From: a virus
DNA length: 40,647 nt
Virus genome (UHGV): UHGV-0183130
Strand: one strand, 5' to 3'
Shown: positions 6,076 to 37,991 of the stretch, piece after piece
How positions within the stretch are numbered: the stretch's first letter is position 1
Layout: each line of letters begins with the position of its first letter
Made by a program: the position numbers and the translations under genes
Notes under the pieces: model-generated
Told to the model about the DNA's origin: nothing
The model's database searches: none
What the model saw: only the letters and a program-made list of their open reading frames with translations

Positions 6076-6113
6076 AATTTACATAATGTGAACTTTTTGA
6101 GTGAGGCAACCAA

Positions 6114-21155: not shown

Positions 21156-21159
21156 AGCT

Positions 21160-21400: not shown

Positions 21401-21496
21401 CAATTCGATTTATAAGCTATCCCTATAATGATTCTCTTAGCGTATGCACAATTAAATGGGCACATCACATTTAGTGCCCTTAGGTTTTCTTCTAGA

Positions 21497-22420: not shown

Positions 22421-22846
22421 ATGACTGGTAAAACAATTAATCTGCAATTTGATGGGTATTGGCGTGAAGCCAATAAGAGTGGCGTTCCAGATCAGTCAGG
22501 AATCTACTGCGTATACGCATGCAAAGCTGTTACTAATGGCTCCAAGACAACACTCGAAATTCGTAAGTTGATTTATATCGGCGAATCATCGAACGTCCGA
22601 TCCCGTGTGGCCACGCACGACAGGCTGGGTGACTGGAATGAACATTTAATGGTCGGTGAGACTCTCTGCTATTCCGTCGCTACTATTACTGGAAAAGATG
22701 ATCGGGTGCGCGCAGAAGCTGCATTGATTAACAAAATGACTCCCCCTGCAAATAGCGAGTATACGGGTGAATTCCCTTACAACGAAACCACTGTTAACTG
22801 CTCTGGGGAAACTTCGCATTTGCTTTCCACATTAACCGTTGGTTAA
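22421..22846 (+). CDS. Putative GIY-YIG-like nuclease domain protein
   Basis: 141 aa; SGIYCVY ... KLIYIGESSNVRSRVATH ... RVRAEAALINKMTPPAN fits GIY / YIG / Arg / Glu / Asn motif order, though the GIY-YIG spacing is longer than canonical. Opposite strand to flanking late genes. Confidence 0.45.
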   Translation: MTGKTINLQFDGYWREANKSGVPDQSGIYCVYACKAVTNGSKTTLEIRKLIYIGESSNVRSRVATHDRLGDWNEHLMVGETLCYSVATITGKDDRVRAEAALINKMTPPANSEYTGEFPYNETTVNCSGETSHLLSTLTVG

Positions 22847-22880
22847 CTCTTTAAAATGGCTGGCTAAGTCTAGCGGCCAT

Positions 22881-23042
22881 TCACTTCAAACATTGCTGCC
22901 TGATGTAATCCTGTAAGTAACTCACTTGCCCGGTGATGGTGCTGATTCGCTCTCTGAGGGTGAAATAATCCCGTTTAGCGGCGTCAGTAAGTCGGGGGCT
23001 ATTGCCATCATCCTTACCGATGATATTGTCTGTTTCACTCAC
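22881..23042 (-). pseudogene. Remnant of an Rz (i-spanin) 3' end
   Basis: In-frame minus translation [43 protein letters not shown] matches the Rz C-terminus; about 54 bp at 22945-22998 is a near-repeat of 24061-24114 inside the intact Rz; no N-terminal part. Confidence 0.55.
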
Positions 23043-23165
23043 TCAGTAGTTAGTATGGTTCTGCATTGTCCCTTCACTAATGTCGTGCTGCGATGTAATT
23101 TCACGGAGGGCCATCACTCCGGCACAGTACGCCGCCCCGATGACCTCCCAGTCCGGCTTGCTCAT
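23043..23165 (-). CDS. Small ORF (40 aa) with HTH-like sequence resembling terminase small-subunit N-termini; possibly a gene remnant
   Basis: MSKPDWEVIGAAYCAGVMALREITSQHDISEGTMQNHTNY; AGGA-type SD upstream; ends with stop directly followed in frame by the Rz remnant. Confidence 0.3.
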   Translation of the reverse strand: MSKPDWEVIGAAYCAGVMALREITSQHDISEGTMQNHTNY

Positions 23166-23251
23166 GCTTCTTTCCTATTAAAGTAATCCCATTGATGACC
23201 TATGGTAAGACGGAAGTAAACCTGTCATCTATGCTACCGAGGAGATTCTCG

Positions 23252-23440
23252 ATGGACGAAACAATTACTGAAAATGCTATTAAGCAAGCATATAGCGTTA
23301 CCATCATGCAGCTTTTTAATGTCTATCTAAATTCAGCAAACGATCCCAACGCATCAGCAAGATTTCAGGAAGGGCTTCGTCTTGCGATACAAGTCCGAGA
23401 TGCCTGCTTGCAAATCGCCTCCCAAAACCATGCGCCATGA
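23252..23440 (+). CDS. Hypothetical small protein (AT-rich cargo)
   Basis: ATG with GAGGAG SD; 62 aa; first of three tandem same-strand small ORFs; 4-nt overlap with next ORF. Confidence 0.3.
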   Translation: MDETITENAIKQAYSVTIMQLFNVYLNSANDPNASARFQEGLRLAIQVRDACLQIASQNHAP

Positions 23441-23685
23441 ATTCATTAGCGGCCTATTCAAAAACTACCATTACGATGGGTCTGCCCATGGTTATGGCAA
23501 CGCAGAAAGGTAATAGAATAAGAGTTAATCCCCTGACCTTACCAAACCAGCGGCCCACCCTAATTAGCTCGATTACTTTGAATACAACTTTTGTGTTTAG
23601 GCAACCTCAAAAATCATACAAACATATCACCCACGCTGATAAAAAAACAATCCAAAATAAAATCTCATTTACATCACTGGAGTAA
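23437..23685 (+). CDS. Hypothetical small protein (AT-rich cargo)
   Basis: 82 aa ORF overlapping the previous stop (ATGA); no recognisable family. Confidence 0.25.
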   Translation: MNSLAAYSKTTITMGLPMVMATQKGNRIRVNPLTLPNQRPTLISSITLNTTFVFRQPQKSYKHITHADKKTIQNKISFTSLE

Positions 23686-23690
23686 CAACC

Positions 23691-23936
23691 ATGCCTAACT
23701 GTGAACTTTTAACCGAAACCGGCGTTGATAACTTTGCCATTGTTATCAAATTTCTATCAGAAAACAACCTTATAGATGAAGCAGTTAATTATTTAAAAAA
23801 CAATGGCCATACAAATATTAGAGTCAGCATCGAAGCTGTTGAAGACATACAGAAATTCTTATCCGAAAAATATCCATCATCCTCATCAAGCAAAGCTGAT
23901 GCCATAATTAATTGCAGTCATAGCCATTGCAGTTAA
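23691..23936 (+). CDS. Hypothetical small protein (AT-rich cargo)
   Basis: 81 aa ORF with GGAG SD; acidic, Ser-rich C-terminus; no recognisable family. Confidence 0.3.
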   Translation: MPNCELLTETGVDNFAIVIKFLSENNLIDEAVNYLKNNGHTNIRVSIEAVEDIQKFLSEKYPSSSSSKADAIINCSHSHCS

Positions 23937-23996
23937 TTACTAACGCTATGCCAACTAATATTGAATAACTAATCAGACAGCGAAATAGGTGACAAG

Positions 23997-24461
23997 TCAT
24001 TTTAAATTCTGCGCACTGACATATTCTTGTAATCCGGCAAGTTGCTTGGTGACAGTTTCTATTCGCTCTCTGAGAGTGAAATAATCCCGTTGAGCGGTGT
24101 CAGTAAGTCTGGGGCCGGTTGCATCATCCATGCTGGCGGTGTCGGTGGTTTGACGCACTTTATTGCAGGCGGCTGCAACGCGCAGCTGCTTGCGCCCAGA
24201 CTCAACATCGCCACGTAGACCGCTAATGGTGTTTTTCGCATCAGCTAACTCCTTCGTATATTTGGCATCCAGTGCAGCGACATCGCGCTGGCGGGTTTGC
24301 ATGTCGGTGATAGTAACGTTAGCTAGGCTGAGCTTTTCAGTTGCTTTGTTGCGTTGGTCTTTGTAGGTGATCGCGTTGTCGCGGTAGTGGTTAACGGCCC
24401 AGCCTAGAGATAAGATTATGCAGATGATCACAGTAATGATGATGTTTGTTAGTCGACTCAC
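23997..24461 (-). CDS. Rz: Spanin inner-membrane subunit Rz
   Basis: 154 aa; [16 protein letters not shown]...[20 protein letters not shown] parallels lambda Rz; GTG start overlapping endolysin stop. Confidence 0.85.
24059..24241 (-). CDS. Rz1: Spanin outer-membrane lipoprotein Rz1, embedded in Rz in +1 frame
   Basis: 60 aa with signal peptide and lipobox (LGASSC), proline-rich [17 protein letters not shown] and C-terminal TPLNGIIS, as in lambda Rz1. Confidence 0.75.
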
Positions 24462-25006
24462 CGGTCAATCCCCCAGCACGTCAGCGCACTTTCTTGATCG
24501 CGCCGCTCGACCTGCCCATAGCACCCATTTTTCTGGCCTTTGGTCAGACGACAGTCGCGGCCGCCGTCTTTAATCCACCAGCGGATCGCTTCACAGGCGC
24601 CTTTACGGTCACCAGCGTTAATGCGCTTATAGAACGTAGAAGGGAAACATTTTCCGGGGCCGATGTTGTAAGGACAAAATGACGCAATACCCGCTTTCTG
24701 TGGTTCGGTCAGTGGTACTTTGATATTTCGCTCAACCCACGCCAGCGCCTTGTCGCGTTCTATGGCGTTCACCTTGGCGCATTTCTCAGCAGACAGCTTC
24801 ATGCCCTGAACTACTGGCTTACCATCAACCATCGTGGCGCCACGGCAAATAGTCCAGATTCCGCCGCCGTCGCGATATGCTGTCAGGCTGTTACCCTCTT
24901 TCTCATCCAGAAACTGATCGAGAATCACGGGCGCGGAAGCCCCCGCAAGAATCAAACCAACGACCGCTGCGCTCAGTTTATTCTTCAGCTTTGGTGGCAT
25001 AGCCAT
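24458..25006 (-). CDS. Endolysin, T4-lysozyme family (GH24) with N-terminal signal-anchor-release-like segment
   Basis: Gly/Ala-rich weakly hydrophobic N-terminus [19 protein letters not shown] then E-x8-D-x5-T catalytic spacing ([16 protein letters not shown]); resembles phage 21-type SAR endolysins. Confidence 0.8.
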
Positions 25007-25256
25007 TGCGCCGATCCTCCCGTTCTTTCCAGCGGAAATACCAGTTCACTGCACAAGTGATAACTGTGCATGCGATACCGACAATAATTGCCCAGTCGCT
25101 CAGGCTTAACCCTGCAATTCTGTCGGCCAGCATCCAGGACACCTCTTTTGCTGTTTTAGCTGTTTCGGCATATGCCTTCGCTGATACACCGCAGCCGGCA
25201 AGCGTGGTTCCTGATCCATATGAAAGTCTGCTGTAAATGGTGCTCATTCTGGTCAT
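24978..25256 (-). CDS. Holin, pinholin-like, possible dual start (MTRM)
   Basis: 92 aa with two hydrophobic segments, the first Gly/Ser/Ala-rich; C-terminus [15 protein letters not shown] resembles the phage 21 pinholin tail; SD GGAGG; overlaps endolysin start. Confidence 0.7.
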   Translation of the reverse strand: MTRMSTIYSRLSYGSGTTLAGCGVSAKAYAETAKTAKEVSWMLADRIAGLSLSDWAIIVGIACTVITCAVNWYFRWKEREDRRNGYATKAEE

Positions 25257-25360
25257 AGCCCTACCTCCGATTATTCGGATGGCGCTGTGTGATGAAAGGG
25301 TCAGGCTTCACGGGCTGGATTTATCAACAATATGTATCGTGGATGATTCCCGTGAGCCTG

Positions 25361-25390
25361 AAATAAAAAAGCCCCGGCGAATGCCAGGGC
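25361..25390 (-). terminator. Rho-independent terminator upstream of the lysis cassette (tR'-like)
   Basis: On minus strand GCCCUGGC-AUUC-GCCGGGGC (8-bp stem with one G-U) followed by UUUUUUAUUU. Confidence 0.6.
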
Positions 25391-25915
25391 TGGTAAATCT
25401 CAAATTTAAATATCAAAGGGATTTCGTTTTAGCTCCAGAGCTTCCTGTTGTCGCCAATGCAACCAGGTTGGTTTTAATGACTTAGCCTTCTCTGATGATG
25501 AGCAAGTTTTTTGGTATAGGTATTCAGTCATACTTATACCAACCTTGGTATCTGGAAATACCCCATGGTATGTGCCGTCAGGATCCTGATGATTGGATAC
25601 GAATAACAATTGCACAAAAGTATTCATACCTTCATTAGACAAATAACAAGAATGAATAAAACGTAGGGTATGAAAATGGTGACTATCTAAATTAACCATG
25701 ATGCTCTCCATGTGGAGTTTATAGCACTCATGTGCACATCACCCGGCGGGTGAAGGGCAAATTTTAACCTTTCCCCTCAGTTTCATCCAACAACAATAAT
25801 AAAACCCGCTCATCGGCGGGTTTATAAAATTTTGGCAACATATCAAATATGCTTAAAATATGGCTTATTTTGTTGCATTTTGCAAGCGCGTTTGAAGGAG
25901 ATAGTGAAATTTACT

Positions 25916-26605
25916 TCACATTTCTGCCACTTTGAGGGCTTCTTCTTCCTCATAGTATTCAAGAGCCATTGCCAACGCAGATTCATCAAGCTGGGTAAAA
26001 GCGGCCTTTAACCCAGCCCAGTGCCATGAATAGACACGCAACCATGTCGAACGGTCAACGCTAACCATGCGGGCCAACGCTGCACCAGCATAGTCTTTAT
26101 AGGTTTCATTATTTCTGTTTGCGGCAATTTCCTGCCCTGCCAGCCATACCAGACCTATCAGTTTCTTTACTACACGCTCCTGAAGCGAGTTTTCACCCAG
26201 GCATTTCTGATAAGTTTTCCAGACGTATTCACACATCATCACCTGGTGCTTATAGCTAAGGTCAAAACCGTAGCAGTACCGCAACCAGGCCTGCTGGTAT
26301 CCACTAAGCGCGGACACTGCCCTACGCCACGGCGCGGACTCAAATTCCGCATCTTTTATCGGCGGCATTGGCCTGCGGCGGCTGCGTGTTTCCAGCACAT
26401 ACAGTGGCGCGGAAAGCGAGTTAACAAAGCGTGGCCCCTTCTCTCCTTCGAGTTCGACGAGATGAATTCCACGGCGCGGGGTGGCATTTTTGTCTGCTGG
26501 TGGGTGTTCACTGAAAGCCTCAAGCTGCCCTTTTGTTCCCCCAGAGAGGTCAGGTAGCGCGCGGCGCAATTCTATTCTTACAAAATTCAGGTCTTGTTGA
26601 TTCAT
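25916..26605 (-). CDS. Putative late-gene antiterminator (Q-like, QuuQ-type), assigned mainly by position
   Basis: About 229 aa from ATG 26605; sits between the DUF968-like gene and the lysis cassette, matching the ydfU - quuQ - holin order recalled from E. coli Qin prophage; not similar to lambda Q itself. Confidence 0.45.
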   Translation of the reverse strand: MNQQDLNFVRIELRRALPDLSGGTKGQLEAFSEHPPADKNATPRRGIHLVELEGEKGPRFVNSLSAPLYVLETRSRRRPMPPIKDAEFESAPWRRAVSALSGYQQAWLRYCYGFDLSYKHQVMMCEYVWKTYQKCLGENSLQERVVKKLIGLVWLAGQEIAANRNNETYKDYAGAALARMVSVDRSTWLRVYSWHWAGLKAAFTQLDESALAMALEYYEEEEALKVAEM

Positions 26606-26626
26606 GCTTCTTTGCGCTCCATACAC

Positions 26627-27622
26627 TTAAGCTTTCGCAATTACGCCGATCGCCAGCGCCCGATCCATAAAACGCAGTAGCAGCTCAAGCTGCGTACCAT
26701 GCTTCTGCTCGAATGCTGGTACATCGGCGTGTAACTCGTCGTGGCACTCTCTGCACAGAGGGATCACGAAGAGGTCATGGGCTTTTGTTGCTGTACCACC
26801 CATACCGTGCCCTACGATATGGTGCGGATCATCTGCTGGCCGTCGGCAACACTCACAGGGTTGTGTTTTAACCCAGCGGGTGTACGTCTCATTTATCCAG
26901 CGGCGTCGCTTTGGCCTGAGCATGAAAGATTCTGGAGACTCCGGATCAACAGAGAGCGTGAGGATCTTCTTCGCCTTCTCCTGCACGAGGCTGGTTGCAG
27001 ACGCTGAAGGCACAATGTCGCTTTCCCTCATGACAGAGCGGATGTTCTCATCCGGGAGGCGCAGCCCTTTGTGCGCAACGCTTTCCGGAATAACATCAGC
27101 CAGGTCGTTTCTGACCATCCACCAGCACAGTTCCGGAAGCGTCAGGATATGCGACTCGGGAAAACCAGAATCACGCCGAATGACTTCCAGAATCCAGGAT
27201 ACCAGGTTTCCTGCCGCTATACCTGCAAGCTGTTCGGTATGCTGCCCCGACAAAGTGTGATCGCAATGCCAGCACAGGCGAATGCTTCCTGGTGGGTGCC
27301 GCATTGTTGTGAAGTTCTTGTCGTGCCACGATGAATGTGGCCACTGGCATTCAAACCGAGAACTCAGCCACTGCTCAAGGGAAGGAAGCCCACCGGCACG
27401 CTGAATAACCCGCTCATTCCCGAAGACCTGCCGCATTACCGGATCATCAGCCAGCGGCTGAATGGCTGCCGGAACAGCCCCGGTACTGAATGACGCCATT
27501 TCTTCTGGTTCAGGTTCGAGCAGAACGCGACCACGCATGAAGAGGTGCATCAGTTCCGCGCCGGGACGAAACAACACAATCCCCATACGATGGGCTACTT
27601 CAGGAGTTAACAAAGCCCTCAC
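26627..27622 (-). CDS. DUF968-family phage protein (YdfU-like) with C-terminal Cys/His cluster
   Basis: 331 aa; C-terminus CECCRRPADDPHHIVGHGMGGTATKAHDLFVIPLCRECHDELH looks like an HNH/zinc-finger type motif; GTG start overlapping Rha stop (GTGA). Confidence 0.5.
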   Translation of the reverse strand: MRALLTPEVAHRMGIVLFRPGAELMHLFMRGRVLLEPEPEEMASFSTGAVPAAIQPLADDPVMRQVFGNERVIQRAGGLPSLEQWLSSRFECQWPHSSWHDKNFTTMRHPPGSIRLCWHCDHTLSGQHTEQLAGIAAGNLVSWILEVIRRDSGFPESHILTLPELCWWMVRNDLADVIPESVAHKGLRLPDENIRSVMRESDIVPSASATSLVQEKAKKILTLSVDPESPESFMLRPKRRRWINETYTRWVKTQPCECCRRPADDPHHIVGHGMGGTATKAHDLFVIPLCRECHDELHADVPAFEQKHGTQLELLLRFMDRALAIGVIAKA

Positions 27623-28305
27623 GCCGCCTGCCCCCCTGCAATATGTTCAGCCCACAAACCACCAATCCAGCGTACTCCCTTGGCAGTGAAACGCGTCTGG
27701 CTAAATGCGTGATTGGATGTGTTCGATGTTCCCGTCTTAACTTCAAATCTTCCTGCGGAAATGTGCTGCGCCATAGGGGTAAGTGTGCCGCCGAGGCGAT
27801 ACAGGATATTGCGTTCAATAAGGAACAGGCGGAACTCAGTTTCTTTTGCGTTGAGCAATTTGGCTACCTGCCGGAATGACATGGAGCCTTTTGCAGAGCA
27901 ATAACGATCAACAAACTCCACTTTTGGCGCCGCAGCTGCCAGCTGGATGGTCAGTTGCTCTTTCTGCTCGGCTAAATCAGCAGCCAGGCGAAGCGCTTCC
28001 GGCAATGAGCGGGGAACACTGACACTCTGCCCTTCTTCCAGTTCCTGCCACCGATCAACAACCGCAGCGGTAAATTCTGGTGACAGTCTGGCAACAATCA
28101 CCAGAGAGTCGCGTTTGTTAAAACGATACTCCTGGTAAACATTGCCGTTATGCTCAAAATCGAACTGCGCCAACGGCGCGGTTAAAATTCCCGCAGCAAC
28201 AAGACGCTCAGCCGAGCGTTTCACGTCACTGTGTTTACTCTGAACCAGATCCGCAATATCACGGCTGGACATTGTTACTACACCATTCACGATTAACTGG
28301 CTCAT
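27619..28305 (-). CDS. Rha-family phage regulatory protein / antirepressor
   Basis: Start at ATG 28305 (SD GGAG); N-terminus LIVNGVVTMSSRDIADLVQSKHSDVKRSAERL fits Rha N-domains; C-terminal half resembles antirepressor C-domains. Confidence 0.6.
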   Translation of the reverse strand: MSQLIVNGVVTMSSRDIADLVQSKHSDVKRSAERLVAAGILTAPLAQFDFEHNGNVYQEYRFNKRDSLVIVARLSPEFTAAVVDRWQELEEGQSVSVPRSLPEALRLAADLAEQKEQLTIQLAAAAPKVEFVDRYCSAKGSMSFRQVAKLLNAKETEFRLFLIERNILYRLGGTLTPMAQHISAGRFEVKTGTSNTSNHAFSQTRFTAKGVRWIGGLWAEHIAGGQAA

Positions 28306-28318
28306 ACTTTTCTCCATA

Positions 28319-28705
28319 TCAGGCGGCTGCACCCGCCGGTTCATATCTGCTGATCGTTATCTCTACCCGACCTTTCGGCACTACGGGTCCCCATTCCACC
28401 AGCATGCGCTTAATCTGGCTGTCGTCTTCCCAGACACCCGCATGCGTCAGCGCGTCAAACAGGGCTTTGTTGTAATTATCGATATCCCGGCGGCGCGCAT
28501 CCGGCGGGTACAGAGTGATTTCTACCGCTGCCAGTTCAGTCGATGGCTTCGGGAGACGTCGTAATTGCTCAATGATCGCCACGCAGGCAGCGCTCTGGTA
28601 TTTACGGCCATCAGCGCTAATGAGGTGACGACCGGCCAGCGGCCCCTTGTTAGGGGCGCGCCAGTAGGTGTTCACGCTCGGAGGGAACGGGAGCACAAGT
28701 TTCAT
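28319..28705 (-). CDS. rusA: Holliday junction resolvase RusA
   Basis: Start at ATG 28705 (SD AGGAGG): MKLVLPFPPSVNTYWR ... DARRRDIDNYNKALFDALTHAGVWEDDSQI parallels E. coli RusA. Confidence 0.75.
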   Translation of the reverse strand: MKLVLPFPPSVNTYWRAPNKGPLAGRHLISADGRKYQSAACVAIIEQLRRLPKPSTELAAVEITLYPPDARRRDIDNYNKALFDALTHAGVWEDDSQIKRMLVEWGPVVPKGRVEITISRYEPAGAAA

Positions 28706-30591
28706 GCCACCTCCTGATGTTGCACTGCACACAGTTCCGGAAGATTTGCCTCCACCAGCGCCCTGGCGAATGGTGGTGGTACCGCATTACCACAGCGGGC
28801 TACCTGCTTATCTTTTGCATAGCGATTTCCACGGTAGTCCTGATCAATAACGTATCCATCCGGGAAGCCCTGCGCTTTGTAGAGTTCATGCGGCTGCAAC
28901 ATGCGCATTCCGATATCAACGATCTGGTATTTAACCCCATCGATCGTTACCAGCCATTCATCGTCACTTTCCCCGCAATACGTCTCGAGAAATGTGCGTA
29001 CCTCACCCACGTGTTGGCCACCAGAGGTGATTGTTGGCATGGGCACATCAAGACGTTGCCCGTCGCGGCATGTTCCACGCAGTTTCACCAAATGAGAGGC
29101 AACAACCGCATGATGATCGACAGTGGTCACTGAGTGTGCGGGTTCATCCATACTGACACCCGGTCCCGTATAGTTACCGCCGTAGTGTTTAGCCAGAAAC
29201 GCGCCCACCAATTGTGATTTACCTCCACCACCAGCTGTAATTGTGGCGCTCGGTTCGTCTGCCCGGTGGCCGACGCTGGCCCCAAACTGGCGGGCTATCA
29301 CTGGCGCAACAAGACAGGCGCGGGATTGCTTCATAATGGTATGAGCAGGTTTATCCAGCGGGCGCGGTTTAGCCTGGTATTCACTACCACCATTACCCGC
29401 CAGGAATGGCGTCAGTGCAGCCTCAACAATCCCGAGTGCATGCCCATTCCCACCCGGGCGTTTTGACGTGCCAGCGGTTACCGTCGGGACAGGTTCGGTA
29501 ACGGGCTGCCCGGTTGCCCCAGTGCGGAATTTTGTCAGGTGTGGAACAGCTAACGCGTAACCGTGGGTTTTAGTAATAGTTTGCAAAGGCTCGTCCAGCT
29601 TCTGACCACGGAAACAGTCGTAACTCGTTTTGGTGCTGGTGTGATTGCACTTCACGATAAACGGCGACGCACTTTCGATAACAAAGCGCTGTATGCCGCG
29701 CGCGATCCGCTTCAGCGTGTTCTCCGCCAGCGTTTTTTTGCGGTCGAAGATGGACAGGGCCGGAACATTCCAGTCGATACATTCCGCAGCGGTACGCCAT
29801 GGCATCAGCCTGCCGCTCTGCACCTCCAGAGACTTAGGATCCCCATGGGTAACTGCAGGCCACTGGATTGGGCAGCCATCGCAGCGCATAACCATGAAGA
29901 AGCGTTTGCGGATCGTCGGCGCGCCGTAATCACACGCGCGTAGTTCGCGATAATCAACATCATATCCAAGCCCATCCACCAGCTTTTGCGCCTGCTCGCT
30001 ACCTCTTTCGATAGACAGAAACTCACAAACCTCAGCCAGTGCCGGGTGATCAGCAGGAATACCAGTGGATAGCATGCCGACAAATGCCTCAAATGTTTCA
30101 CCAGCTCGTGCCGGATCCGGACGCTGCGCATCATAAGGCGGTATAACTGGGCCAACAAATGCAGCCAAATCATCCCCCACCAGATTGGGATTTTGTGGCT
30201 CAGCTGGTAATAGCGGTCCCCACGTTTTGAACTCTTCCACGTTCTCCAGCATCATCACGCGCGGTCGCTTTGCCAGTGCCCAACGCAGAACAATCCAGGC
30301 CAGACCGCGTATCTCTTTTTTCACAGGCTTGGCGCCTTTTGCCTTCGAGAAGTGTCGGCAGTCCGGGCTAAACCATGCCAGGCCGACAGGATTACCTCCG
30401 GTGGCGGCTACCGGATCCACGTCAAATACGGATTCGCAGTAATGCAGTGTTTCCGGGTGATTCGTCTTGTGCATCGCAATGGCGTTTTCGTCGTGGTTGA
30501 TCGCAATATCCACGCTGCGTCCGATCGCCAGTTCAATACCCGTTGATGCGCCACCGCCACCAGCAAAGTTATCAACGATAATCTCACGCAT
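28702..30591 (-). CDS. DNA (cytosine-5)-methyltransferase, orphan, with large extra region
   Basis: 629 aa; motif I-like DNFAGGGGASTG, PC-motif-like SPDCRHFSKAKG, ENV motif (MLENVEEF); no adjacent restriction endonuclease candidate. Confidence 0.7.
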   Translation of the reverse strand: MREIIVDNFAGGGGASTGIELAIGRSVDIAINHDENAIAMHKTNHPETLHYCESVFDVDPVAATGGNPVGLAWFSPDCRHFSKAKGAKPVKKEIRGLAWIVLRWALAKRPRVMMLENVEEFKTWGPLLPAEPQNPNLVGDDLAAFVGPVIPPYDAQRPDPARAGETFEAFVGMLSTGIPADHPALAEVCEFLSIERGSEQAQKLVDGLGYDVDYRELRACDYGAPTIRKRFFMVMRCDGCPIQWPAVTHGDPKSLEVQSGRLMPWRTAAECIDWNVPALSIFDRKKTLAENTLKRIARGIQRFVIESASPFIVKCNHTSTKTSYDCFRGQKLDEPLQTITKTHGYALAVPHLTKFRTGATGQPVTEPVPTVTAGTSKRPGGNGHALGIVEAALTPFLAGNGGSEYQAKPRPLDKPAHTIMKQSRACLVAPVIARQFGASVGHRADEPSATITAGGGGKSQLVGAFLAKHYGGNYTGPGVSMDEPAHSVTTVDHHAVVASHLVKLRGTCRDGQRLDVPMPTITSGGQHVGEVRTFLETYCGESDDEWLVTIDGVKYQIVDIGMRMLQPHELYKAQGFPDGYVIDQDYRGNRYAKDKQVARCGNAVPPPFARALVEANLPELCAVQHQEVA

Positions 30592-31465
30592 GGGTTACCC
30601 CCTGCATGCTGCCGACAAGACCACGCGCAATTGTGATAATTTCGCTGGTGGCCGTTCGTTCCAGCCAGAGTTGATTGATGTTGGCTTTCAGCTTGTTCTG
30701 CTGAGCCTCACTCAATACGTCAACGCCTTCCACCTGGTTAAACACCAGACCAACCTCGAGAGGCCAGATACGTGACTCAGTTTCCGATGGTATGACTGGC
30801 TCCTGGGGTGCTCGCATTGCAATTGTCGGCTCTTTGCCAACAGCGAATTGAGCCAGCGCCATAAATGCCCGACCTTTTGCCTCCAGTTCTGTGCGGTTGA
30901 TATAGCTGAACCGCTCACCACGCCATGACTTATCGAATACAGCTATGGCACCGGCAAAAAACGCGCTGGTGGGCTTCTGTTTTTCGTCAGCAGGTACAAA
31001 CCACACTGGCAGATCGAACCCAATGCGCCCGCGAATGAATACAATGTGATCGGCATCTTCCGGCCACCACGTTTCACTTGGCGCGGCTTTTATCAGGAAT
31101 ACATAGCGACCGCCCTTCTCGCACTGGGCTGCTGCGTACTTCATGATGTGCGTCATACCAGTGATCGCCTGTTTCTCGTGGTACTGCGAACGGCTATACG
31201 GTGGGTTGCCATAACCTGCGCCACCCAGTTCTGCCAGACGTTCAGACCAGTCCTGGGTCAGCGCGTTATCTTCGGCGGTGTACCATGCCGGGCATTTCGC
31301 GTTGTCGTCGTCAGCAAACAAATCCAGAACTAATGGACCAAATAGCGCGTTGATCCCCCAAAACAGCAGATCCGGTGTTCGCCACTGATCGCCAACTTCT
31401 TTCAATTCGTGAGCTGGTTTACTGCGCAGTTCTGCCAGCGACTGGCAATATTTATTTGGCATCAT
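30584..31465 (-). CDS. Phage-type DNA N6-adenine methyltransferase (Dam-like), orphan
   Basis: 293 aa; catalytic NPPY motif (GYGNPPYSRSQ); overlaps downstream MTase start by 8 nt. Confidence 0.65.
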   Translation of the reverse strand: MMPNKYCQSLAELRSKPAHELKEVGDQWRTPDLLFWGINALFGPLVLDLFADDDNAKCPAWYTAEDNALTQDWSERLAELGGAGYGNPPYSRSQYHEKQAITGMTHIMKYAAAQCEKGGRYVFLIKAAPSETWWPEDADHIVFIRGRIGFDLPVWFVPADEKQKPTSAFFAGAIAVFDKSWRGERFSYINRTELEAKGRAFMALAQFAVGKEPTIAMRAPQEPVIPSETESRIWPLEVGLVFNQVEGVDVLSEAQQNKLKANINQLWLERTATSEIITIARGLVGSMQGVTHA

Positions 31466-32328
31466 GAGCGGAACCCCGAATGTTCTGGAAGTGAGTAGTC
31501 AACATTTTGGAAGCTTGCGCGGCTGGCTGAGTTAGCCGTCCATTTACCGTTAACGCGCTCAGGTCGCCCAGCGGCAGACCATTTGGTCGCGCTTTGCAGG
31601 TAACCAGGGAAGTTTTTTGGAATAAACAGAGTTGCCGGACGGAGATATTGAGCCTGCTCGCTATCACGCCAATCAGCGTTTTTGTAATCCACCACAAGGC
31701 ACAGATCATCAACAGTGAACCGTTCCCGCAGACGGGCACGAATGTTCTCCAGCGACGTGCTGCATACCTGATAGCGTGAACCAGTTGTCTGGTTCAGGTA
31801 AGACAAAACCTGTCTGGCCTGATCAGTAATCACAATCTCAGGGTCGGGTTGCGCCGCAACCGGACAAGAGGGTTTTGAAGTTACTTGTGGATCTTGTGTT
31901 GATTTTACTGACGGATCCCCGCCAGATTCTGACGGGTCAAAACCGCCGTTTTTGCCAGATTTCGACGGGTCAGTTTTTGAGGCGTCAAATTTTGATGCGT
32001 CAGATTTTGACGTGTCAGAATCTGACAGTTGAGAAAATGCGGCAGCCTGAAGTTTCGCCACATTCAGGCGGTACACGTTCGAAGCATTACGGTTACCATT
32101 ACGGCGCTGTGTGCGCGTGAGCCAGCCATCTTTTTCAAGCTTTGCGATTGCCGTTCTGATAGTGCTCGGCCCTGCGCCAAGCTGGCGAGCAATAGTTTCA
32201 ATGGACGGCCAGCACACACCTTCATCGCTGCTGAAATCAGCAAGGCGAGCCATGATCGCGACACTAGACAACTTCATGCCCGACGCTGCGCAACCATCCC
32301 ATACGTAGCCGGTTAATTTAGTGCTCAT
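31462..32328 (-). CDS. Replication initiation protein (lambda O-like), iterons inside its coding sequence
   Basis: 288 aa; N-terminal winged-HTH-like region, repetitive linker (SDSDTSKSDASKFDASKTDPSKSG) encoded by DNA iterons, conserved-looking C-terminal domain. Confidence 0.65.
   Translation of the reverse strand: MSTKLTGYVWDGCAASGMKLSSVAIMARLADFSSDEGVCWPSIETIARQLGAGPSTIRTAIAKLEKDGWLTRTQRRNGNRNASNVYRLNVAKLQAAAFSQLSDSDTSKSDASKFDASKTDPSKSGKNGGFDPSESGGDPSVKSTQDPQVTSKPSCPVAAQPDPEIVITDQARQVLSYLNQTTGSRYQVCSTSLENIRARLRERFTVDDLCLVVDYKNADWRDSEQAQYLRPATLFIPKNFPGYLQSATKWSAAGRPERVNGKWTANSASRASFQNVDYSLPEHSGFRS
31900..32030. repeat. Origin iterons (putative ori) within the O-like gene
   Basis: Six to seven tandem copies of a roughly 15-17 bp unit related to AGATTTTGACGNGTC (e.g. 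ccagattctgacgggtc, ccagatttcgacgggtc, aaattttgatgcgtc, agattttgacgtgtc, agaatctgacag). Confidence 0.6.
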
Positions 32329-32337
32329 GATCGTCCG

Positions 32338-32664
32338 TTATCTCCCTGAACTTTTGCCTGAAATGCTCAAGTGGGCTGAAGCATTCGTGCGGGTAGCCAT
32401 CACGCAGATAGATAACGCGCTGTGTTTCTGGCTCCCAGCGGATAACACGGACTGGCACTCCGCGGTTGTCTTTGAACCTTCGATTAAGTTCGCGCACAGG
32501 CGTTTTGCCCTCCGGTTGTAGACCCCCACAATTGAAACCGCCCTACTGTGGTTACACGGAACCCAGCGGTTTGATAATCTGCGTTCATACCGAAACAACG
32601 GAGTACCCGAAACCGGGATCATCCTGAGTTGCGGTAGACGGTCAAAAGCCGTTAAACTGCTCAT
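32338..32664 (-). CDS. Hypothetical ORF between the CII-position gene and the O-like gene (uncertain)
   Basis: 108-codon minus ORF from ATG 32664, 6 nt after the upstream stop, ending 10 nt before the O-like ATG; atypical Ser/Arg-rich composition, weak SD; competing plus-strand ORF 32321-32521. Confidence 0.25.
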   Translation of the reverse strand: MSSLTAFDRLPQLRMIPVSGTPLFRYERRLSNRWVPCNHSRAVSIVGVYNRRAKRLCANLIEGSKTTAECQSVLSAGSQKHSALSICVMATRTNASAHLSISGKSSGR

Positions 32665-32669
32665 GCGGA

Positions 32670-33221
32670 TTATTTCTCCATACTCGAAGAGTTGTTCGCC
32701 AAGGCGCCCGGAGCTGCACACTCGCGGGCGTCACTCTTTTCAGCGACACAAAAAACTCGATACAGAAGCGTTACGTGCTCCTGGAACTTAGCGATAACCT
32801 GATAGCTGTTTTCCTCAATCTGACCACGCTCATCTGCGTCAATTACCCCATCAGCCGTGGCTTTACGTACAAAATTCGAATGACGGCCTATCCATTCGAT
32901 GGACTCCATCAGGCGCTGATTTATATCGGCGTTATCCAGATCATCAACATCTGCCAGTGGTACAAATACGCCCTGAGAATGGCGCGCAACGGCATCAGCG
33001 ATATGAGTTGAACCACCAGCACGTTGTAAAACCATTGCCCAGCCCAGTGGGAAGATCTGGTCGCCGTCAACACGAAGGCGGTTAAACAATGCGTTCTCTG
33101 TCACGCCCAACCATTCCGCCGCCTCGGCATAACCACCAGGTAGATCGGTGATCGTTTTTTTTATCGCCGCTACCAGCCAGGCTGGCTGACGTTCGACTTT
33201 CCAAATAGGTTCGTTACCCAC
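32670..33221 (-). CDS. CII-position HTH regulatory protein (YdaT/CII-like), function uncertain
   Basis: 183 aa immediately after cro; GTG start with AAGGAG SD; HTH-like segment GGYAEAAEWLGVTENALFNRLR. Confidence 0.4.
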   Translation of the reverse strand: MGNEPIWKVERQPAWLVAAIKKTITDLPGGYAEAAEWLGVTENALFNRLRVDGDQIFPLGWAMVLQRAGGSTHIADAVARHSQGVFVPLADVDDLDNADINQRLMESIEWIGRHSNFVRKATADGVIDADERGQIEENSYQVIAKFQEHVTLLYRVFCVAEKSDARECAAPGALANNSSSMEK

Positions 33222-33243
33222 GGCTTACTCCTTTTTCCTGTGG

Positions 33244-33447
33244 TTACTGGTTAGCAGATACGCCTGTAACCTTGTGATATAGGGATGCGTCATACTTAAG
33301 TTTCCCATTAGTAATTCTCTCTATTACGAAGGCTTGCTTCTCAGGGATGACCTTTCCCCAACGACATACGGCAGGGTGTGAGATATTCAAAGCAACAGCG
33401 GTTTTAGAGATACCGCCAAAATGCTTTACGACTTCGGACTTATACAT
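33244..33447 (-). CDS. cro: Cro-like HTH repressor
   Basis: 67 aa, divergent from cI across the operator region; HTH-like SKTAVALNISHPAVCRWGK; SD GGAGG. Confidence 0.65.
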   Translation of the reverse strand: MYKSEVVKHFGGISKTAVALNISHPAVCRWGKVIPEKQAFVIERITNGKLKYDASLYHKVTGVSANQ

Positions 33448-33539
33448 AGTTCCTCCGGTGTGATGAATGAACCAAAGGTAACAAAAGGTACATTAAATAG
33501 CAAACAACAGTTACAAGCAAAGGGTGTAACATTGGTTAC
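33448..33539. promoter_or_regulatory. Right operator / divergent promoter region (OR, pR and pRM candidates)
   Basis: Contains AAAGGTAACAAAAGGTACATT (33474-33494), a motif repeated twice downstream of cI, and perfect palindrome GTAACATTGGTTAC (33526-33539) abutting the cI ATG (short-leader cI message possible). Confidence 0.55.
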
Positions 33540-34199
33540 ATGAAAACAGAGATGAAAGACCGCATCAGATCCAGACGAATCCAGCTGGATATAACCCAAT
33601 TAGCACTGGCTAAAAAGCTTGGTGTAAGCCGTGTATCGGTTACAAAATGGGAAAACGGCACGACAAAGCCTGATGGTGAGAACCTTCACCAGTTGGCTCA
33701 GGCTCTATCAACAACACCAGAGTGGATACTCTATGGAAGCGGTGATGAGGCCATTGACGACACGCGCGTCGTGCCTTTTTTGAAACCCCCTGTAGCTGTA
33801 CCGATCATATCGGCAGTTCAAGCCGGTTTATGGACGGATAGCTATGCCTGCTCAAGACTTACAGACGTGATTTCCTGGACTCAAACAACTGCAAATGTAT
33901 CGGATGAAGCGTTTGGGTTAGTAGTCCGCGGTGAGTCGATGACTAACCCGCAAGGACTTCCATCTATACCAGAAGGTTCTATTGTTATAGTCGAGCCCCA
34001 TTATGGGCAGCTTGATGATCTATATGGGAAAATAGTCGTTGCTATATTGGATGGGACATCAGAAGCAACGGTTAAAAAATTAGTTTGGGATAGCCCCTAC
34101 TCATACCTAATGCCACTGAATCCGTTATTTAAGCCAATCCAAATTGATGGTAACTGTCGCATTGTCGGAAAAGTTGTACAAATCACTCAAAACATTTAA
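33540..34199 (+). CDS. cI: CI-like repressor (HTH_XRE N-domain plus LexA/S24 autopeptidase C-domain)
   Basis: 219 aa; N-terminal HTH (ITQLALAKKLGVSRVSVTKWENG), C-terminal S24 features (VRGESM serine region, KK pair); divergent from cro. Confidence 0.85.
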   Translation: MKTEMKDRIRSRRIQLDITQLALAKKLGVSRVSVTKWENGTTKPDGENLHQLAQALSTTPEWILYGSGDEAIDDTRVVPFLKPPVAVPIISAVQAGLWTDSYACSRLTDVISWTQTTANVSDEAFGLVVRGESMTNPQGLPSIPEGSIVIVEPHYGQLDDLYGKIVVAILDGTSEATVKKLVWDSPYSYLMPLNPLFKPIQIDGNCRIVGKVVQITQNI

Positions 34200-34213
34200 T
34201 CCCTTCAAAATTA

Positions 34214-34240
34214 AGAGCCGAGCATAGCCTCGGCTTTTTT
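34214..34240 (+). terminator. Rho-independent terminator after cI
   Basis: AGAGCCGAG-CAUAGC-CUCGGCU hairpin (7-bp stem) followed by UUUUUU, 15 nt after the cI stop. Confidence 0.65.
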
Positions 34241-34244
34241 ACAT

Positions 34245-34340
34245 TCCCAAAGGTAACATAAAGTACATTACTCGCTTGACCGCAAAGGTAACTAAAGGTA
34301 CATTTAAATCATCAAACGTAATCATTGGTACGTTTGGTGA
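34245..34340. promoter_or_regulatory. Left operator region (OL) with candidate pL
   Basis: Two further copies of the OR motif (AAAGGTAACATAAAGTACATT 34249-34269; AAAGGTAACTAAAGGTACATT 34284-34304) plus GTAATCATTGGTAC; candidate -35 TTGACC (34276-34281) and -10 TACATT (34299-34304) with 17-bp spacer. Confidence 0.5.
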
Positions 34341-34367
34341 GGATAACAAATGCCTTGTACCACTATT

Positions 34368-34415
34368 CTGGCGGCCCGGTGTTTTCCCACTTGTCCGGTA
34401 ACCGCCAGCCTTTTT
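34368..34415 (+). promoter_or_regulatory. Structured leader hairpin with U-tract just downstream of candidate pL
   Basis: CTGGCGG (34368-34374) pairs with CCGCCAG (34402-34408) around an inner CCGG/CCGG stem, followed by CCTTTTTC; lies inside a doubtful 77-aa ORF (34350-34583). Confidence 0.4.
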
Positions 34416-34579
34416 CAAGGCACAACAGAAAAGGGCATCACCGGGCGACGGGCTCATAACCCAATCCACCCGGGCAAAAAGAAAGCGGTCTCTGCAAGCC
34501 GCCGACCAATGCAGGTGCCCTTCTCTGTTGTGTATGGAGAAAGTTCGGCGGTTGCAGCCGCCTTAACGAGGGTAAAACC

Positions 34580-35007: not shown

Positions 35008-35835
35008 ATGTCTCAGTTAGACAGCGGTACCTTCAAGCAGGTCAAAGACCTGGTTCTTTCAGGTTATCACCTGAATGATATTCATGGCCTGGCTTGCCCG
35101 ACCGCATTGCTGCCAGATGGTACTGGCGTTGAAAGCCTTGAGCGCTTTTCTCTGGAGCGTTTCCGCTTTCGTGGCGCAATGACCACAACCAGTATTGACG
35201 ACTTCGCACGTTATTCTAAAGGTTACGCCAGCGACAGTGAGCCAGCTCGTTGCTTCATTGACGCTGACAATATGACCGCCCGTTCAGTGTTCAACATCGG
35301 CACCCTGGATAATCCCGGTCACGCCGATAACGTTGCTTCAATCACCCTGAAGAAAACCGCCCCGTTCCGCGCGTTACTGCAGATCGATGGTCAACGTCTG
35401 AAGCAAAAGCAAATTGCTGAATGGCTGGAAGACTGGAGTGATTACCTGCTGGCGTTTGATGCCGATGGTAATACGATGCAGATTTCCCAGGCGGCTCAGG
35501 CAGTGCGTCGTATCACCATTCAACAAGCAACCCAGCAGGACCATGAAACTAGTGATTTCGCTGGTAAAAAATCCCTGATGCAAAGCGTTGAAGCAAGCAG
35601 CAAAGACGTAATGCCTGTGGCATTCGAGTTCAAATGTGTGCCGTATGAAGGTCTGGGCGAACGCCGCTTTAGCTTGCGTAACAGCCTGCTGACCAGCGAT
35701 GAACCCTGCTTTGTTCTGCGCATCATCCAACTTGAAGCCCAGGAAGAAGAGATCGCCAACGAATTCCGCGATTTGCTGATCAGCAAGTTCGACGGTGAAT
35801 CAGTGGAAACTTTCATCGGTAACTTTAAAGCCTAA
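35008..35835 (+). CDS. DUF2303-family protein (YfdQ-like)
   Basis: 275 aa with AAGGA SD; size and neighbourhood (before an HD-domain YfdR-like gene) match the yfdQ-yfdR pair recalled from E. coli prophage CPS-53. Confidence 0.5.
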   Translation: MSQLDSGTFKQVKDLVLSGYHLNDIHGLACPTALLPDGTGVESLERFSLERFRFRGAMTTTSIDDFARYSKGYASDSEPARCFIDADNMTARSVFNIGTLDNPGHADNVASITLKKTAPFRALLQIDGQRLKQKQIAEWLEDWSDYLLAFDADGNTMQISQAAQAVRRITIQQATQQDHETSDFAGKKSLMQSVEASSKDVMPVAFEFKCVPYEGLGERRFSLRNSLLTSDEPCFVLRIIQLEAQEEEIANEFRDLLISKFDGESVETFIGNFKA

Positions 35836-35871: not shown

Positions 35872-35963
35872 ATTGAAGCGTAATTCCATTAATTATCGCC
35901 AACCGGCGAGGGATTCGTGCAACCAAAATCTGCGCGGTGCAGCGCGCCAATATGGAGAAAACC

Positions 35964-36503
35964 ATGAGCTACATTCAGACATTATCCGGCAAACATTTTA
36001 ATTACCTCGATATCCAACAGGACGATATCGTGATCGAAGATATCGCTACCGCGTTGTCTCATATCTGCCGCTTTGCTGGGCATCTTCCTGAGTTTTACAG
36101 CGTCGGCCAGCATAGCGTTTTAACCAGCCATCTCGTTCCGCAGGAGTTTGCATTAGAAGCACTGCTTCATGATGCCGCCGAAGCATACCTGCAGGATATC
36201 CCCTCACCGCTTAAGCGCCTGTTACCGGATTACCAGGTGATCGAAGCTCGCGTAGACGCTGCTATTCGCCAGAAATTTGGCCTTCCTATGGAGCAACACC
36301 CAACCGTGAAATATGCCGATCTGGTGATGCTCGCCAGCGAACGCCGCGATTTTGAAATTGACGAAGGTTCCGTGTGGCCATGCCTCAATGGCGTTGTCCC
36401 GACGGACCTATTCATCATCAACCCAGTTCGTCCAGGCCAGTCATACGGCATGTTCATAAATCGCTTTAATGAGTTGATGGAGCAGCGCCAATGTGCCGCA
36501 TGA
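35964..36503 (+). CDS. HD-domain phosphohydrolase (YfdR-like 5'-deoxynucleotidase)
   Basis: Start at ATG 35964 (SD GGAG): MSYIQTLSGKHFNYLD...ICRFAGH...LLHDAAEAY fits HD-domain metal-binding His/Asp pattern and remembered YfdR. Confidence 0.6.
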   Translation: MSYIQTLSGKHFNYLDIQQDDIVIEDIATALSHICRFAGHLPEFYSVGQHSVLTSHLVPQEFALEALLHDAAEAYLQDIPSPLKRLLPDYQVIEARVDAAIRQKFGLPMEQHPTVKYADLVMLASERRDFEIDEGSVWPCLNGVVPTDLFIINPVRPGQSYGMFINRFNELMEQRQCAA

Positions 36504-36667: not shown

Positions 36668-36918
36668 CCGTATTTGAATATCTCCAGGCTCATCCGAATA
36701 CCACCAGCGGTGAAATCGCCAAAGGTATGAACAAAACTACGCCAGCGGTCGCCGGAGCATTATCGCAACTCTATGGCACAGGCCGGATCGTGAAGTCTGG
36801 TGTTCGCAAGGGCATTCCAACATACCGTGTTAACGATATGCCGTTTGGGTGTAGTAACAGCCTAACCATGATGTTTAACCAGCTATTGAATAGAGCCAGA
36901 CAGGGAAGCGCGCTATGA
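36664..36918 (+). CDS. Small winged-helix DNA-binding protein (MarR-like wHTH)
   Basis: 84 aa; FEYLQAHPNTTSGEIAKGMNKTTPAVAGALSQLYGTGRIV is a typical wHTH recognition-helix/wing layout; coupled (ATGA) to flanking ORFs. Confidence 0.45.
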   Translation: MTVFEYLQAHPNTTSGEIAKGMNKTTPAVAGALSQLYGTGRIVKSGVRKGIPTYRVNDMPFGCSNSLTMMFNQLLNRARQGSAL

Positions 36919-37991
36919 GCAAATCGAGTATGGAGTATTACTTCGAGTTCCCTGCCTCTCGCGGCTTGCAGGGGGATACGCTTATTCTTTTGATGAACGT
37001 TCCAGGACGAACCCTATCCCGCGTACTGGCATCTGATAATTACGGACACACGCTTGAGCGTTCTCAGCGTGAACTCAATAAATCACGCGTAAAAAATTTT
37101 TACGAATACCTAGTGGCAGCTGCTGAAAATAAGGAGCCTTTCATCATCCCACCACTGGTTGGTAACTGTGCTTCACATGTGGAGTTTGAAGAGTTCGGCA
37201 ATACAAACGTAGGCGTTGTTCGGTTCCCAATGGACGCAGAAATTAAACTTTTTGATGGGCAACATCGTGGTGCAGGTATAACCATGTTCTGCAGAGAATA
37301 CGATACACCCCTGTTTGTACCTTTGATGATGACTCTGCAACTACCACTGAAGACACGCCAGCAATTTTTCTCTGATATCAATAACAACGTATCTAAGCCT
37401 TCTGCAGCAATAAATATGGCTTATAACGGCAGGGATCAGGTTGCCCAGACAATGGTGTCATTCCTCTCCACTCACTCAGTGTTCTCCGAGATCACCGATT
37501 TTGAACACAGCGTGGTTCCGGCAAAAAGTGACCTCTGGATTAGTTTTAAGGCCGTTGGTGATGCAACTGCTAAATTCGCGGGTAACGGGGACGATGCGCT
37601 GTCTACTGGCGATATTTATGACCTTTGGGAAGCGTGGCTGAAGCTGACGGCTATTGATGGTATCCGACACGGTGTATCACCAGCTGAATACAAGCGAGAT
37701 TACATCCAATTCCATGCGGTGATGATCAATGCGTTTGGCTATGCAGTCCAGGAACTACTGAGGCGTCGCCCTGCGCATATCATCGTGCAGATGATCGAAG
37801 AACTGGTAACAAAAGCCACAATGACCGAGCTGGAAGACTTCTTCCTTATCTCTTCATGGGATGGTGTTTGTGCTGATGCCAGCAAAGAAAGAGCCACGGT
37901 AATTGCCAGCGTTCCGGCACAGAAAGCTGCAGCACAAAGGCTTGCAATGGCTATCACAGCAGGGACATTCGCAATGGAGGCAGCCCAATGA
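36915..37991 (+). CDS. DGQHR-domain protein (DndB-like / ParB-like fold)
   Basis: 358 aa with the signature FDGQHRGAGI; coupled by ATGA overlaps to the wHTH gene upstream and the Ea22-like gene downstream. Confidence 0.6.
   Translation: MSKSSMEYYFEFPASRGLQGDTLILLMNVPGRTLSRVLASDNYGHTLERSQRELNKSRVKNFYEYLVAAAENKEPFIIPPLVGNCASHVEFEEFGNTNVGVVRFPMDAEIKLFDGQHRGAGITMFCREYDTPLFVPLMMTLQLPLKTRQQFFSDINNNVSKPSAAINMAYNGRDQVAQTMVSFLSTHSVFSEITDFEHSVVPAKSDLWISFKAVGDATAKFAGNGDDALSTGDIYDLWEAWLKLTAIDGIRHGVSPAEYKRDYIQFHAVMINAFGYAVQELLRRRPAHIIVQMIEELVTKATMTELEDFFLISSWDGVCADASKERATVIASVPAQKAAAQRLAMAITAGTFAMEAAQ

Follow-up and report, generated by a model that had tools for sequence, protein, structure and literature searches.

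Tandem target-recognition-like repeats in a predicted orphan C5-cytosine methyltransferase of a lambdoid prophage

The virus genome UHGV-0183130, analysed here as a single stretch of 40,647 nucleotides (nt; "the window"), encodes two adjacent DNA methyltransferases, a Dam-family N6-adenine enzyme of 293 amino acids (aa) and a C5-cytosine enzyme of 629 aa. Residues 327–547 of the C5 enzyme consist of six tandem repeats (R1–R6) of 32–48 aa each, in register. The array is located between motif VIII and motif IX, the site of the target-recognition domain in C5 enzymes, and it makes up most of the extra length of the protein. The units may be recognition modules that direct methylation to two or more kinds of site on phage DNA as it replicates, a reading in which we place about even confidence.

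The repeat array and its variation

The six units (Table 1) follow one frame, G..DEP..T-I/V-T (or S-V-T), then a variable loop, then L-V..L...G. The C5 enzyme has six occurrences of the motif P..[TS][IVL][TM], where 0.07 would be expected, and 0 of 20,000 shuffles reached that number. In the M.HhaI-DNA complex, one of the two loops that read the bases begins with a conserved T-L dipeptide, and we take the type-specific segment of each repeat unit to stand at the place of the M.HhaI loop that follows T-L. R6 takes up the position that a lone PxPTIT element has ahead of motif IX in ordinary C5 enzymes; a single element of this kind, KPSPTITT, is present in a monospecific C5 enzyme (PMC11954522). 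No DNA-level repeats were found beneath the protein repeats, so the units are old and did not arise by a recent duplication or from a slippage-prone tract. The remaining extra length is contributed by a 24-aa insert after motif VI and a conserved stretch of ~90 aa after motif VIII. The insert (residues ~130–156) is variable, being an indel among close homologues, and is modelled with a low predicted local distance difference test score (pLDDT).

Nine module architectures, differing by whole units, occur among the 120 closest C5 homologues (75–100% identical), hereafter the close homologues. The architecture of the window protein, R1-R2-R3-R4-R5-R6, is found in 61 of the 120, and the same order without R3 in 23. 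An extra unit, Rx, follows R4 in a further 18, Rx is accompanied by Ry (located after R5) in ten, and Ry occurs alone in four. The last four proteins each have an architecture of their own (Rx but no R3; Rx but no R2; both Rx and Ry but no R4; Rx plus a second R5-like unit). The constant units are thus R1, R5, and R6, while R2, R3, R4, Rx, and Ry may be present or absent; the homologues lacking R3 are 570-, 591-, 594-, and 633-aa forms. Every indel spans exactly one repeat period, in register, with the same break phase at the L-V strand after the variable loop, and the gain or loss of a single unit keeps both the reading frame and the motifs. The mean pairwise identity of the units (0.81–0.95) is close to that of the catalytic core (0.91–0.95). 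Units as conserved as the core are not a decaying linker.

The array is a trait of the whole subfamily. Hidden Markov models (HMMs) built for single units from shallow alignments gave weak in-register cross-matches, and they were replaced by a pooled HMM made from eight units, used at a threshold of 8 bits with reversed sequences as a control. In the window protein and 150 family representatives (151 proteins), the pooled HMM detected 891 units at or above this threshold, compared with 0 in the reversed sequences. The median repeat period is 35 aa, and a protein has from one to 12 units, most commonly six or seven. About ten unit types can be distinguished, in varying combinations across relatives that are ~45–60% identical overall, and five of the six window units belong to different major types, each of which is present in 47 to 117 of the 151 proteins. 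All types have the frame G.GQ..DEPL.TVT ... LVAAFLVKYYG in common and diverge mainly in the 4–12 residues following T-V-T. The family comprises 8,182 clusters at 50% identity with E ≤1e-3, or 2,428 with E ≤1e-30, and in the phage collection it is frequent among phages of Gordonia, Mycobacterium, Arthrobacter, Pseudomonas, Vibrio, and enterobacteria.

Typical C5 enzymes such as M.HhaI and M.SPRI are ~330–440 aa long. The first-pass annotation of the window had called the 629-aa enzyme unusually large and suggested an extra domain or multispecificity. The size is indeed exceptional beside typical C5 enzymes, but it is normal within the subfamily, where the best 150 representatives span 403–1113 aa. 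As for the suggested extra domain or multispecificity, six tandem target-recognition-like repeats give it anatomical support, while multispecificity itself is one interpretation of that anatomy, weighed below. In P0154, P0204, P0224, and P0229 (931–1113 aa), the extra length is due to inteins (Hint, with or without a LAGLIDADG homing endonuclease), which begin at about residue 80–100, close to catalytic motif IV.

Catalytic core and known relatives

The 629-aa protein matches Pfam PF00145 (E 3.4e-20, 73.2 bits, cut-off 22) and falls below the cut-off of NCBIfam TIGR00675 'dcm' (53.8 bits, cut-off 100.65); it belongs to a divergent C5 subfamily. It also matches phrog_116 and phrog_23072 (1e-103 to 1e-110). 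The motifs of the catalytic core are split by the array into an N-terminal and a C-terminal part. The former contains the S-adenosylmethionine (SAM)-binding motif I (FAGGGG, residues 9–14), motif IV (SPDC, residues 75–78, with the catalytic Cys78) in a P-D-C form instead of the common P-C, motif VI (ENV, residues 116–118), and motif VIII (RKR, residues 228–230, with R228 and R230). The C-terminal part contains motif IX (RMLQPHELYKAQGFPDGY at residues 563–580, of which RMLQPHEL is 563–570) and motif X (GNAVPP, residues 601–606). In an alignment of the window protein with 137 diverse homologues (44–59% identity), the Pro and Cys of motif IV, E-N-V, both Arg of motif VIII, and the Asn of motif X are invariant, and motif I is nearly so. 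Six cluster representatives from several Citrobacter species are also 629 aa long and 96–100% identical, and every source that names the close homologues calls them cytosine methyltransferases. The protein is accordingly identified by sequence as a C5-cytosine methyltransferase with intact catalytic motifs and is predicted to be active.

An initial AlphaFold2 model computed from 36 close homologues was discarded (pLDDT 36), and a second run on 138 diverse sequences gave a mean pLDDT of 77, with >90 in the catalytic core. Foldseek placed this model with M.HaeIII (TM-score normalized to the target, 0.67) and M.HhaI (0.64), both at a probability of 1.0, which was also reached by DNMT1 and MET1, and the modelled protein has the two-domain C5 methyltransferase fold. 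When Protein Data Bank sequences were searched, none of the three methyltransferases of the window (the third is described below) had a close relative of solved structure; the best match of the C5 enzyme, 3g7u (E 3e-7), covers motifs only.

The 293-aa protein is predicted to be an N6-adenine methyltransferase of the HP1/T1-type phage Dam family. It matches PF05869 Dam (E 1.2e-43, 149.1 bits, cut-off 28.1), the NCBIfam equivalog TIGR01712 for phage N-6-adenine-methyltransferase (2.2e-61, 206.2 bits, cut-off 97.05), and, over its full length, the PADLOC model MTase_II PDLC03332 (2.4e-159). With the family of HP1, T1, and VT2-Sa it has in common the equivalog-level score, the NPPY catalytic motif (residues 87–90), a small size without a separate recognition domain, and an early-region location in a temperate phage genome; the characterised members of this type recognise GATC. 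It differs from them by an extension of ~85 aa that follows the Dam domain (residues ~16–199) at the C-terminus and matches phrog_16025 at residues 229–286. The gene is modular, encoding 293 aa here and 439 aa in Escherichia coli MB06232 (L002 3384–4703). In the relatives from Flotzy and ST64B, unlike the HP1/T1/VT2-Sa family, the Dam domain is fused to a phosphoadenosine phosphosulfate (PAPS) reductase-like domain. The 444-aa Flotzy protein (L003 2674–4008) is annotated 'phosphoadenosine phosphosulfate reductase', as is the ST64B gene beside rusA, and the window protein matches phrog_33262 (PAPS reductase) at profile positions 284–489. The co-encoding of adenine and cytosine methyltransferase activities in a temperate enterobacterial phage recalls Dmt of phage P1, a fused N6-adenine and C5 methyltransferase in which both activities are co-expressed, whereas the window has two separate, overlapping genes. 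Among ten of the longest C5 family members scanned, no Dam-C5 fusion was found, as four contain inteins and six match PF00145 only.

The closest parallel to the array is provided by the multispecific enzymes M.SPRI, M.Phi3TI, M.Rho11sI, M.H2I, SPbeta MtbP, and M.BssHII, which also combine one C5 core with several short tandem modules. The Bacillus phage enzymes and the window enzyme are both phage-borne orphans whose modules, each containing a T-[LIV] element, lie between motifs VIII and IX; close phages differ in the modules that they carry in both groups, and the presumed role in both is evasion of several restriction systems. However, the window enzyme has motif IV in the form SPDC(R/K)HFS where theirs is PC(Q/P), and it has more units, six here and up to 12 in its family, compared with two or three active recognition domains in the Bacillus enzymes. 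Its units also share a strong common frame that makes them recognisable as sequence repeats, and its family belongs to Gram-negative lambdoid and P2-like phages and to actinophages. The T-[LIV] elements of the variable region are SPTITT, SHTLSA, and EPAFTVNT in SPR, and SPTLTT and EPAFTVNT in phi3T. A full-length BLASTP comparison of the window enzyme with M.SPRI gave no significant alignment; the best match was between R5 (EPAHSVTTVDHHAVVA) and SPR residues 354–376 (EPAFTVNTIDRHGVAV) over 23 aa with E 0.009, and the catalytic core motifs matched more weakly (E 0.065 or worse). HMMs of the unit types reached a best empirical p of ~0.003 against SPR and phi3T before correction for ten types. 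Membership in the M.SPRI/M.Phi3TI sequence family is ruled out by these marginal BLASTP and HMM signals and by cores that belong to different subfamilies, and the window enzyme would at most be an analogue of the Bacillus enzymes.

Genomic setting of the methyltransferase genes

The first-pass annotation had described overlapping Dam-like and C5 methyltransferase genes with NPPY and C5-type motifs in a nin region, lacking a restriction endonuclease partner, and all of this is borne out. Both open reading frames (ORFs) are present as described and match the families named above, no catalytic residue is lost in the motif scan or in the alignment with 137 homologues, and the genes lie, nin-like, between an O-like replication gene and Q. 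No restriction endonuclease family was recognised among the flanking genes or the other window ORFs scanned, although a novel one is strictly possible, and both enzymes are therefore considered to be orphans. The gene order is O-like replication gene, Dam, C5, rusA, Ant/Rha antirepressor, DUF968/HNH, and antiterminator Q. These O-like, rusA, and Q neighbours, together with the CII-like and CI-type immunity genes, place the pair where lambda has its nin region, in the rightward early (PR-type) operon of a lambdoid prophage. The start codon of the Dam gene overlaps the O-like replication gene by ATGA, and the overlap between the Dam stop and the C5 start, which is also present in phages phiNP and Flotzy, suggests translational coupling. 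A promoter and terminator scan of positions 25500–34500 returned promoters no better than chance. The host is probably Citrobacter, as the nearest protein relatives of the C5 enzyme are from Citrobacter freundii, C. werkmanii, and C. youngae (96–100% identity).

Table 1. Positions of the methyltransferase genes, repeat units, and neighbouring features in the window.
Feature	Position	Strand	Remarks
Dam-family N6-adenine methyltransferase gene	30584–31465	-	293 aa
C5-cytosine methyltransferase gene	28702–30591	-	629 aa
Dam stop/C5 start overlap	30584–30591	-	8 nt, ATGCGTGA, read from the sequence
C5 N-terminal catalytic part	29884–30591	-	Residues 1–236; motifs I, IV, VI, VIII
Repeat unit R1	29518–29613	-	Residues 327–358, FRGQKLDEPLQTITKTHGYALAVPHLTKFRTG; in 120 of 120 close homologues
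Repeat unit R2	29374–29517	-	Residues 359–406, ATGQPVTEPVPTVTAGTSKRPGGNGHALGIVEAALTPFLAGNGGSEYQ; long variable loop; missing from one close homologue (P0092)
Repeat unit R3	29278–29373	-	Residues 407–438, AKPRPLDKPAHTIMKQSRACLVAPVIARQFGA; missing from 24 of 120 close homologues
Repeat unit R4	29167–29277	-	Residues 439–475, SVGHRADEPSATITAGGGGKSQLVGAFLAKHYGGNYT; missing from P0095; extra unit Rx after R4 in many
Repeat unit R5	29068–29166	-	Residues 476–508, EPAHSVTTVDHHAVVASHL / GPGVSMDEPAHSVTTVDHHAVVASHLVKLRGTC; in all close homologues
Repeat unit R6	28951–29067	-	Residues 509–547, RDGQRLDVPMPTITSGGQHVGEVRTFLETYCGES...; last unit; R6 type in 117 of 151 family members
C5 C-terminal catalytic part	28705–28950	-	Residues 548–629; motifs IX, X
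C5 stop/likely rusA start overlap	28702–28705	-	ATGA; rusA start MKLVL..., AGGAGG ahead
O-like replication gene	31462–32328		Upstream of Dam; HTH_36, DnaD_N, Phg_2220_C domains
CII-like gene	32670–33221	-	Lambdoid immunity region
CI-type repressor gene	33540–34199	+	Lambdoid immunity region
Class I SAM-dependent methyltransferase gene	38455–38931	+	158 aa; LDVCCGS motif I, DPPH
Lysozyme gene	24458–25006		Lysis region
Rz gene	23997–24461		Lysis region

The RusA homologue of E. coli is 128 aa long. In E. coli prophages whose flanks are ~90–94% identical in DNA to those of the window, the Dam-family gene is joined directly to rusA, which indicates that the C5 gene is dispensable, an optional cassette. 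The arrangement of Dam followed by C5 is common to phages phiNP, Flotzy, and Eeyore. In Citrobacter phage phiNP, the pair (mtase-met) follows the O gene as it does here, and its C5 protein is 71.5% identical to that of the window. Phages with this C5 family (phiNP, Flotzy, ZF40, and LPM4) often have two or three methyltransferase genes, and orphan methyltransferases of phages are already known, so that the pair by itself is ordinary.

The leftward early operon, away from the pair, includes a third gene whose 158-aa product has LDVCCGS at residue 8 and DPPH at residue 70. The product is matched by phrog_954 'DNA methyltransferase' (5.3e-85) and by the PADLOC MTase_II/oMTase models PDLC03288/PDLC03730 (3.2e-71 and 2.3e-48), its Pfam matches are sub-threshold (Methyltransf_11 and Methyltransf_25), no solved structure matched it in sequence, and the name given to its E. 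coli homologue by the Prokaryotic Genome Annotation Pipeline (PGAP) is 'class I SAM-dependent methyltransferase'. The first-pass annotation had counted it as a possible third methyltransferase; the gene is real by its phrog_954 match and motifs, while DNA as its substrate is an annotation resting on database names, so that three methyltransferases in the prophage is a reasonable count. Relatives occur in 253 phage records, including Listeria phage A118 and Streptococcus phage T12, and the gene has an ATGA overlap with an upstream Ead/Ea22 gene. In Pectobacterium phage ZF40, gp20 is 78% identical to this small enzyme and gp21 is 57% identical to the window C5 enzyme, but there the gene immediately ahead of the C5 gene encodes the small DPPH enzyme and not one of the Dam family. 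Because gp20 adjoins and overlaps gp21 in ZF40 (L007 1779–4405), these methyltransferase families travel together in different combinations; a further methyltransferase gene, gp27, lies 2.4 kb downstream in the same phage.

Two genes upstream of the DPPH methyltransferase gene, the leftward early operon contains a gene for a DndB-like (DGQHR-domain) protein (36915–37991, plus strand), which matches PF14072 (4.8e-47), TIGR03187 (2.2e-56), PADLOC DndB (2.4e-39), and phrog_7901 of unknown function (8e-202). No dnd or dpd family was matched among the other window ORFs scanned, and the stand-alone protein could be a regulator or a counter-defence factor against phosphorothioate-type systems. The same operon includes a DUF2303 protein gene (35008–35835, plus strand; 1.7e-66) and an ORF at 35937–36503 (plus strand) with a weak, below-cut-off match to the YfbR-like HD-domain 5'-deoxynucleotidase (1.4e-4). 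Elsewhere in the window, the G+C content is 0.39–0.44 at 21001–24000 and 25001–26000, compared with 0.52–0.59 in the structural genes, and two ORFs of this low-G+C stretch without a Pfam match (21497–22000, minus strand, and 22421–22846, plus strand) may be morons beside the lysis genes. Among the tail genes, a BRO-N/P22 antirepressor-like gene (5172–5840, minus strand) adjoins an Arc-like repressor gene (6114–6557, plus strand), and the region 5172–6557 looks like an immI-like module as in P22.

Function of the repeat units

If the units are recognition modules, each ~35-aa module would be a target-recognising domain, as in the multispecific Bacillus phage enzymes, and one catalytic core would pair with alternative modules to methylate several different cytosine-containing sequences. 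Phage progeny would in that case carry DNA already protected from several restriction systems of the host. The position in the PR-type operon and the stop-start overlaps predict lytic-phase co-expression, that is, that the Dam-C5 pair would be made only in lytic growth and act on replicating phage DNA. The sequence analysis shows what the genes are, that their motifs are intact, that they are orphans in an early operon, and that the array gains and loses modules among relatives, whereas we infer when the enzymes are expressed, which DNA they target, that each module has its own specificity, and that they counter restriction. For the Bacillus phage enzymes, it is established that tandem target-recognition domains confer several specificities (PMC8936443; Trautner et al. 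1996, cited in PMC12707154). Phage orphan methyltransferases guard against restriction enzymes (PMC4190342; PMC12707154), which is their established role.

Several observations weigh against multispecific modules. The R1, R5, and R6 types are near-universal and collinear, and even the shortest family members examined (464–488 aa) mostly have three to five units, both of which would fit a composite single domain equally well. Two units of one coarse type occur in 72 of the 151 proteins, the units resemble the mapped SPR and phi3T regions only marginally in sequence, and AlphaFold2 modelled R1–R4 at low confidence (pLDDT 33–68), so that structure lends these units no support. The PcaI system still restricts phage ZF40 (PMC8989522), which has homologous copies of two of the three enzymes; protection would thus be selective at best.

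The most serious alternative, which we regard as possible but somewhat unlikely, is that the repeats jointly build one composite DNA-binding or target-recognition domain with a single, relaxed, or short specificity, in which the number of units tunes affinity, reach, or processivity and adds no targets. The prevalence of multi-unit proteins in the family, even the shortest examined mostly having three to five units, is consistent with this, as are the constancy and collinearity of R1, R5, and R6, the same-type duplicates within proteins, and the single strong consensus frame across all unit types. In addition, only R5 and R6 are confidently placed in the AlphaFold2 model, packed against the core at a pLDDT of 66–89. 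However, a composite domain would not be expected to gain and lose single units between proteins at least 75% identical with frame and motifs kept. Moreover, the type-specific part is kept between orthologous units and varies in length and sequence between different units, as would be expected of specificity determinants, and on balance we continue to prefer recognition modules.

Other alternatives concern the enzymes as a whole. Dam methylation serves the biology of other phages directly, for instance in P1 packaging, and the pair considered here adjoins replication and recombination genes. The methyltransferases might in the same way serve replication, packaging, gene expression, the lysis-lysogeny decision, or lysogen epigenetics; prophage methyltransferases can alter host phenotypes (10.1101/2024.04.17.589803). 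Such a role is improbable as the main explanation, as the C5 gene is dispensable in close relatives, the rapid turnover of modules resembles an arms-race trait, and the PR-operon position predicts silence in the lysogen. It is very improbable that the C5-like enzyme installs a non-methyl group, such as carboxymethyl from carboxy-SAM (Cx-SAM) like CmoX, or 5-methylcytosine (5mC) on the way to hypermodification. Phage enzymes of this kind exist (PMC12783734), and the C5-carboxymethyltransferase structure 8yf3 is among the Foldseek matches, but it ranks below ordinary methyltransferases, no CmoA-like, TET/JBP-like, or glycosyltransferase gene was found among the window ORFs scanned, and the close homologues, where named, are all called cytosine methyltransferases. 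Prophage methyltransferases are sometimes silent or truncated, as described for M.BatI homologues (PMC8936443), but we see hardly any chance that one or both genes of the pair are inactive remnants, given full-length ORFs with every catalytic residue, six 629-aa representatives at 96–100% identity across several Citrobacter species, and repeat units conserved at the level of the catalytic core.

A stronger form of the recognition-module reading is that every one of the units, of which there are six here and as many as 12 in relatives, is an independent target-recognition cassette, so that the subfamily would be a 'key-ring' methyltransferase family. We consider this unlikely. If true, protection by a single core would extend to many unrelated sites on phage DNA in a family of 2,428 clusters at 50% identity, and cassettes would be shuffled by the prophages through in-register recombination, tracking host restriction systems. 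It would surpass the multispecificity of every DNA methyltransferase known and would provide a natural, readable code tying about ten cassette types to DNA motifs. Our literature search, which did not cover REBASE and much of the older literature, found no account of the repeat array or of specificity in the subfamily.

The repeat array explains the odd size of very common, uncharacterised 'DNA cytosine methyltransferase' annotations in prophages, which occur in Enterobacteriaceae, actinophages, and others. The natural variants that differ by a single unit offer a way to learn whether multispecific methylation, so far a curiosity of Bacillus phages, is widespread. If one unit corresponds to one motif, specificity would become predictable from sequence and engineerable, and the predicted specificities would aid the reading of 5mC methylomes and of phage host range.

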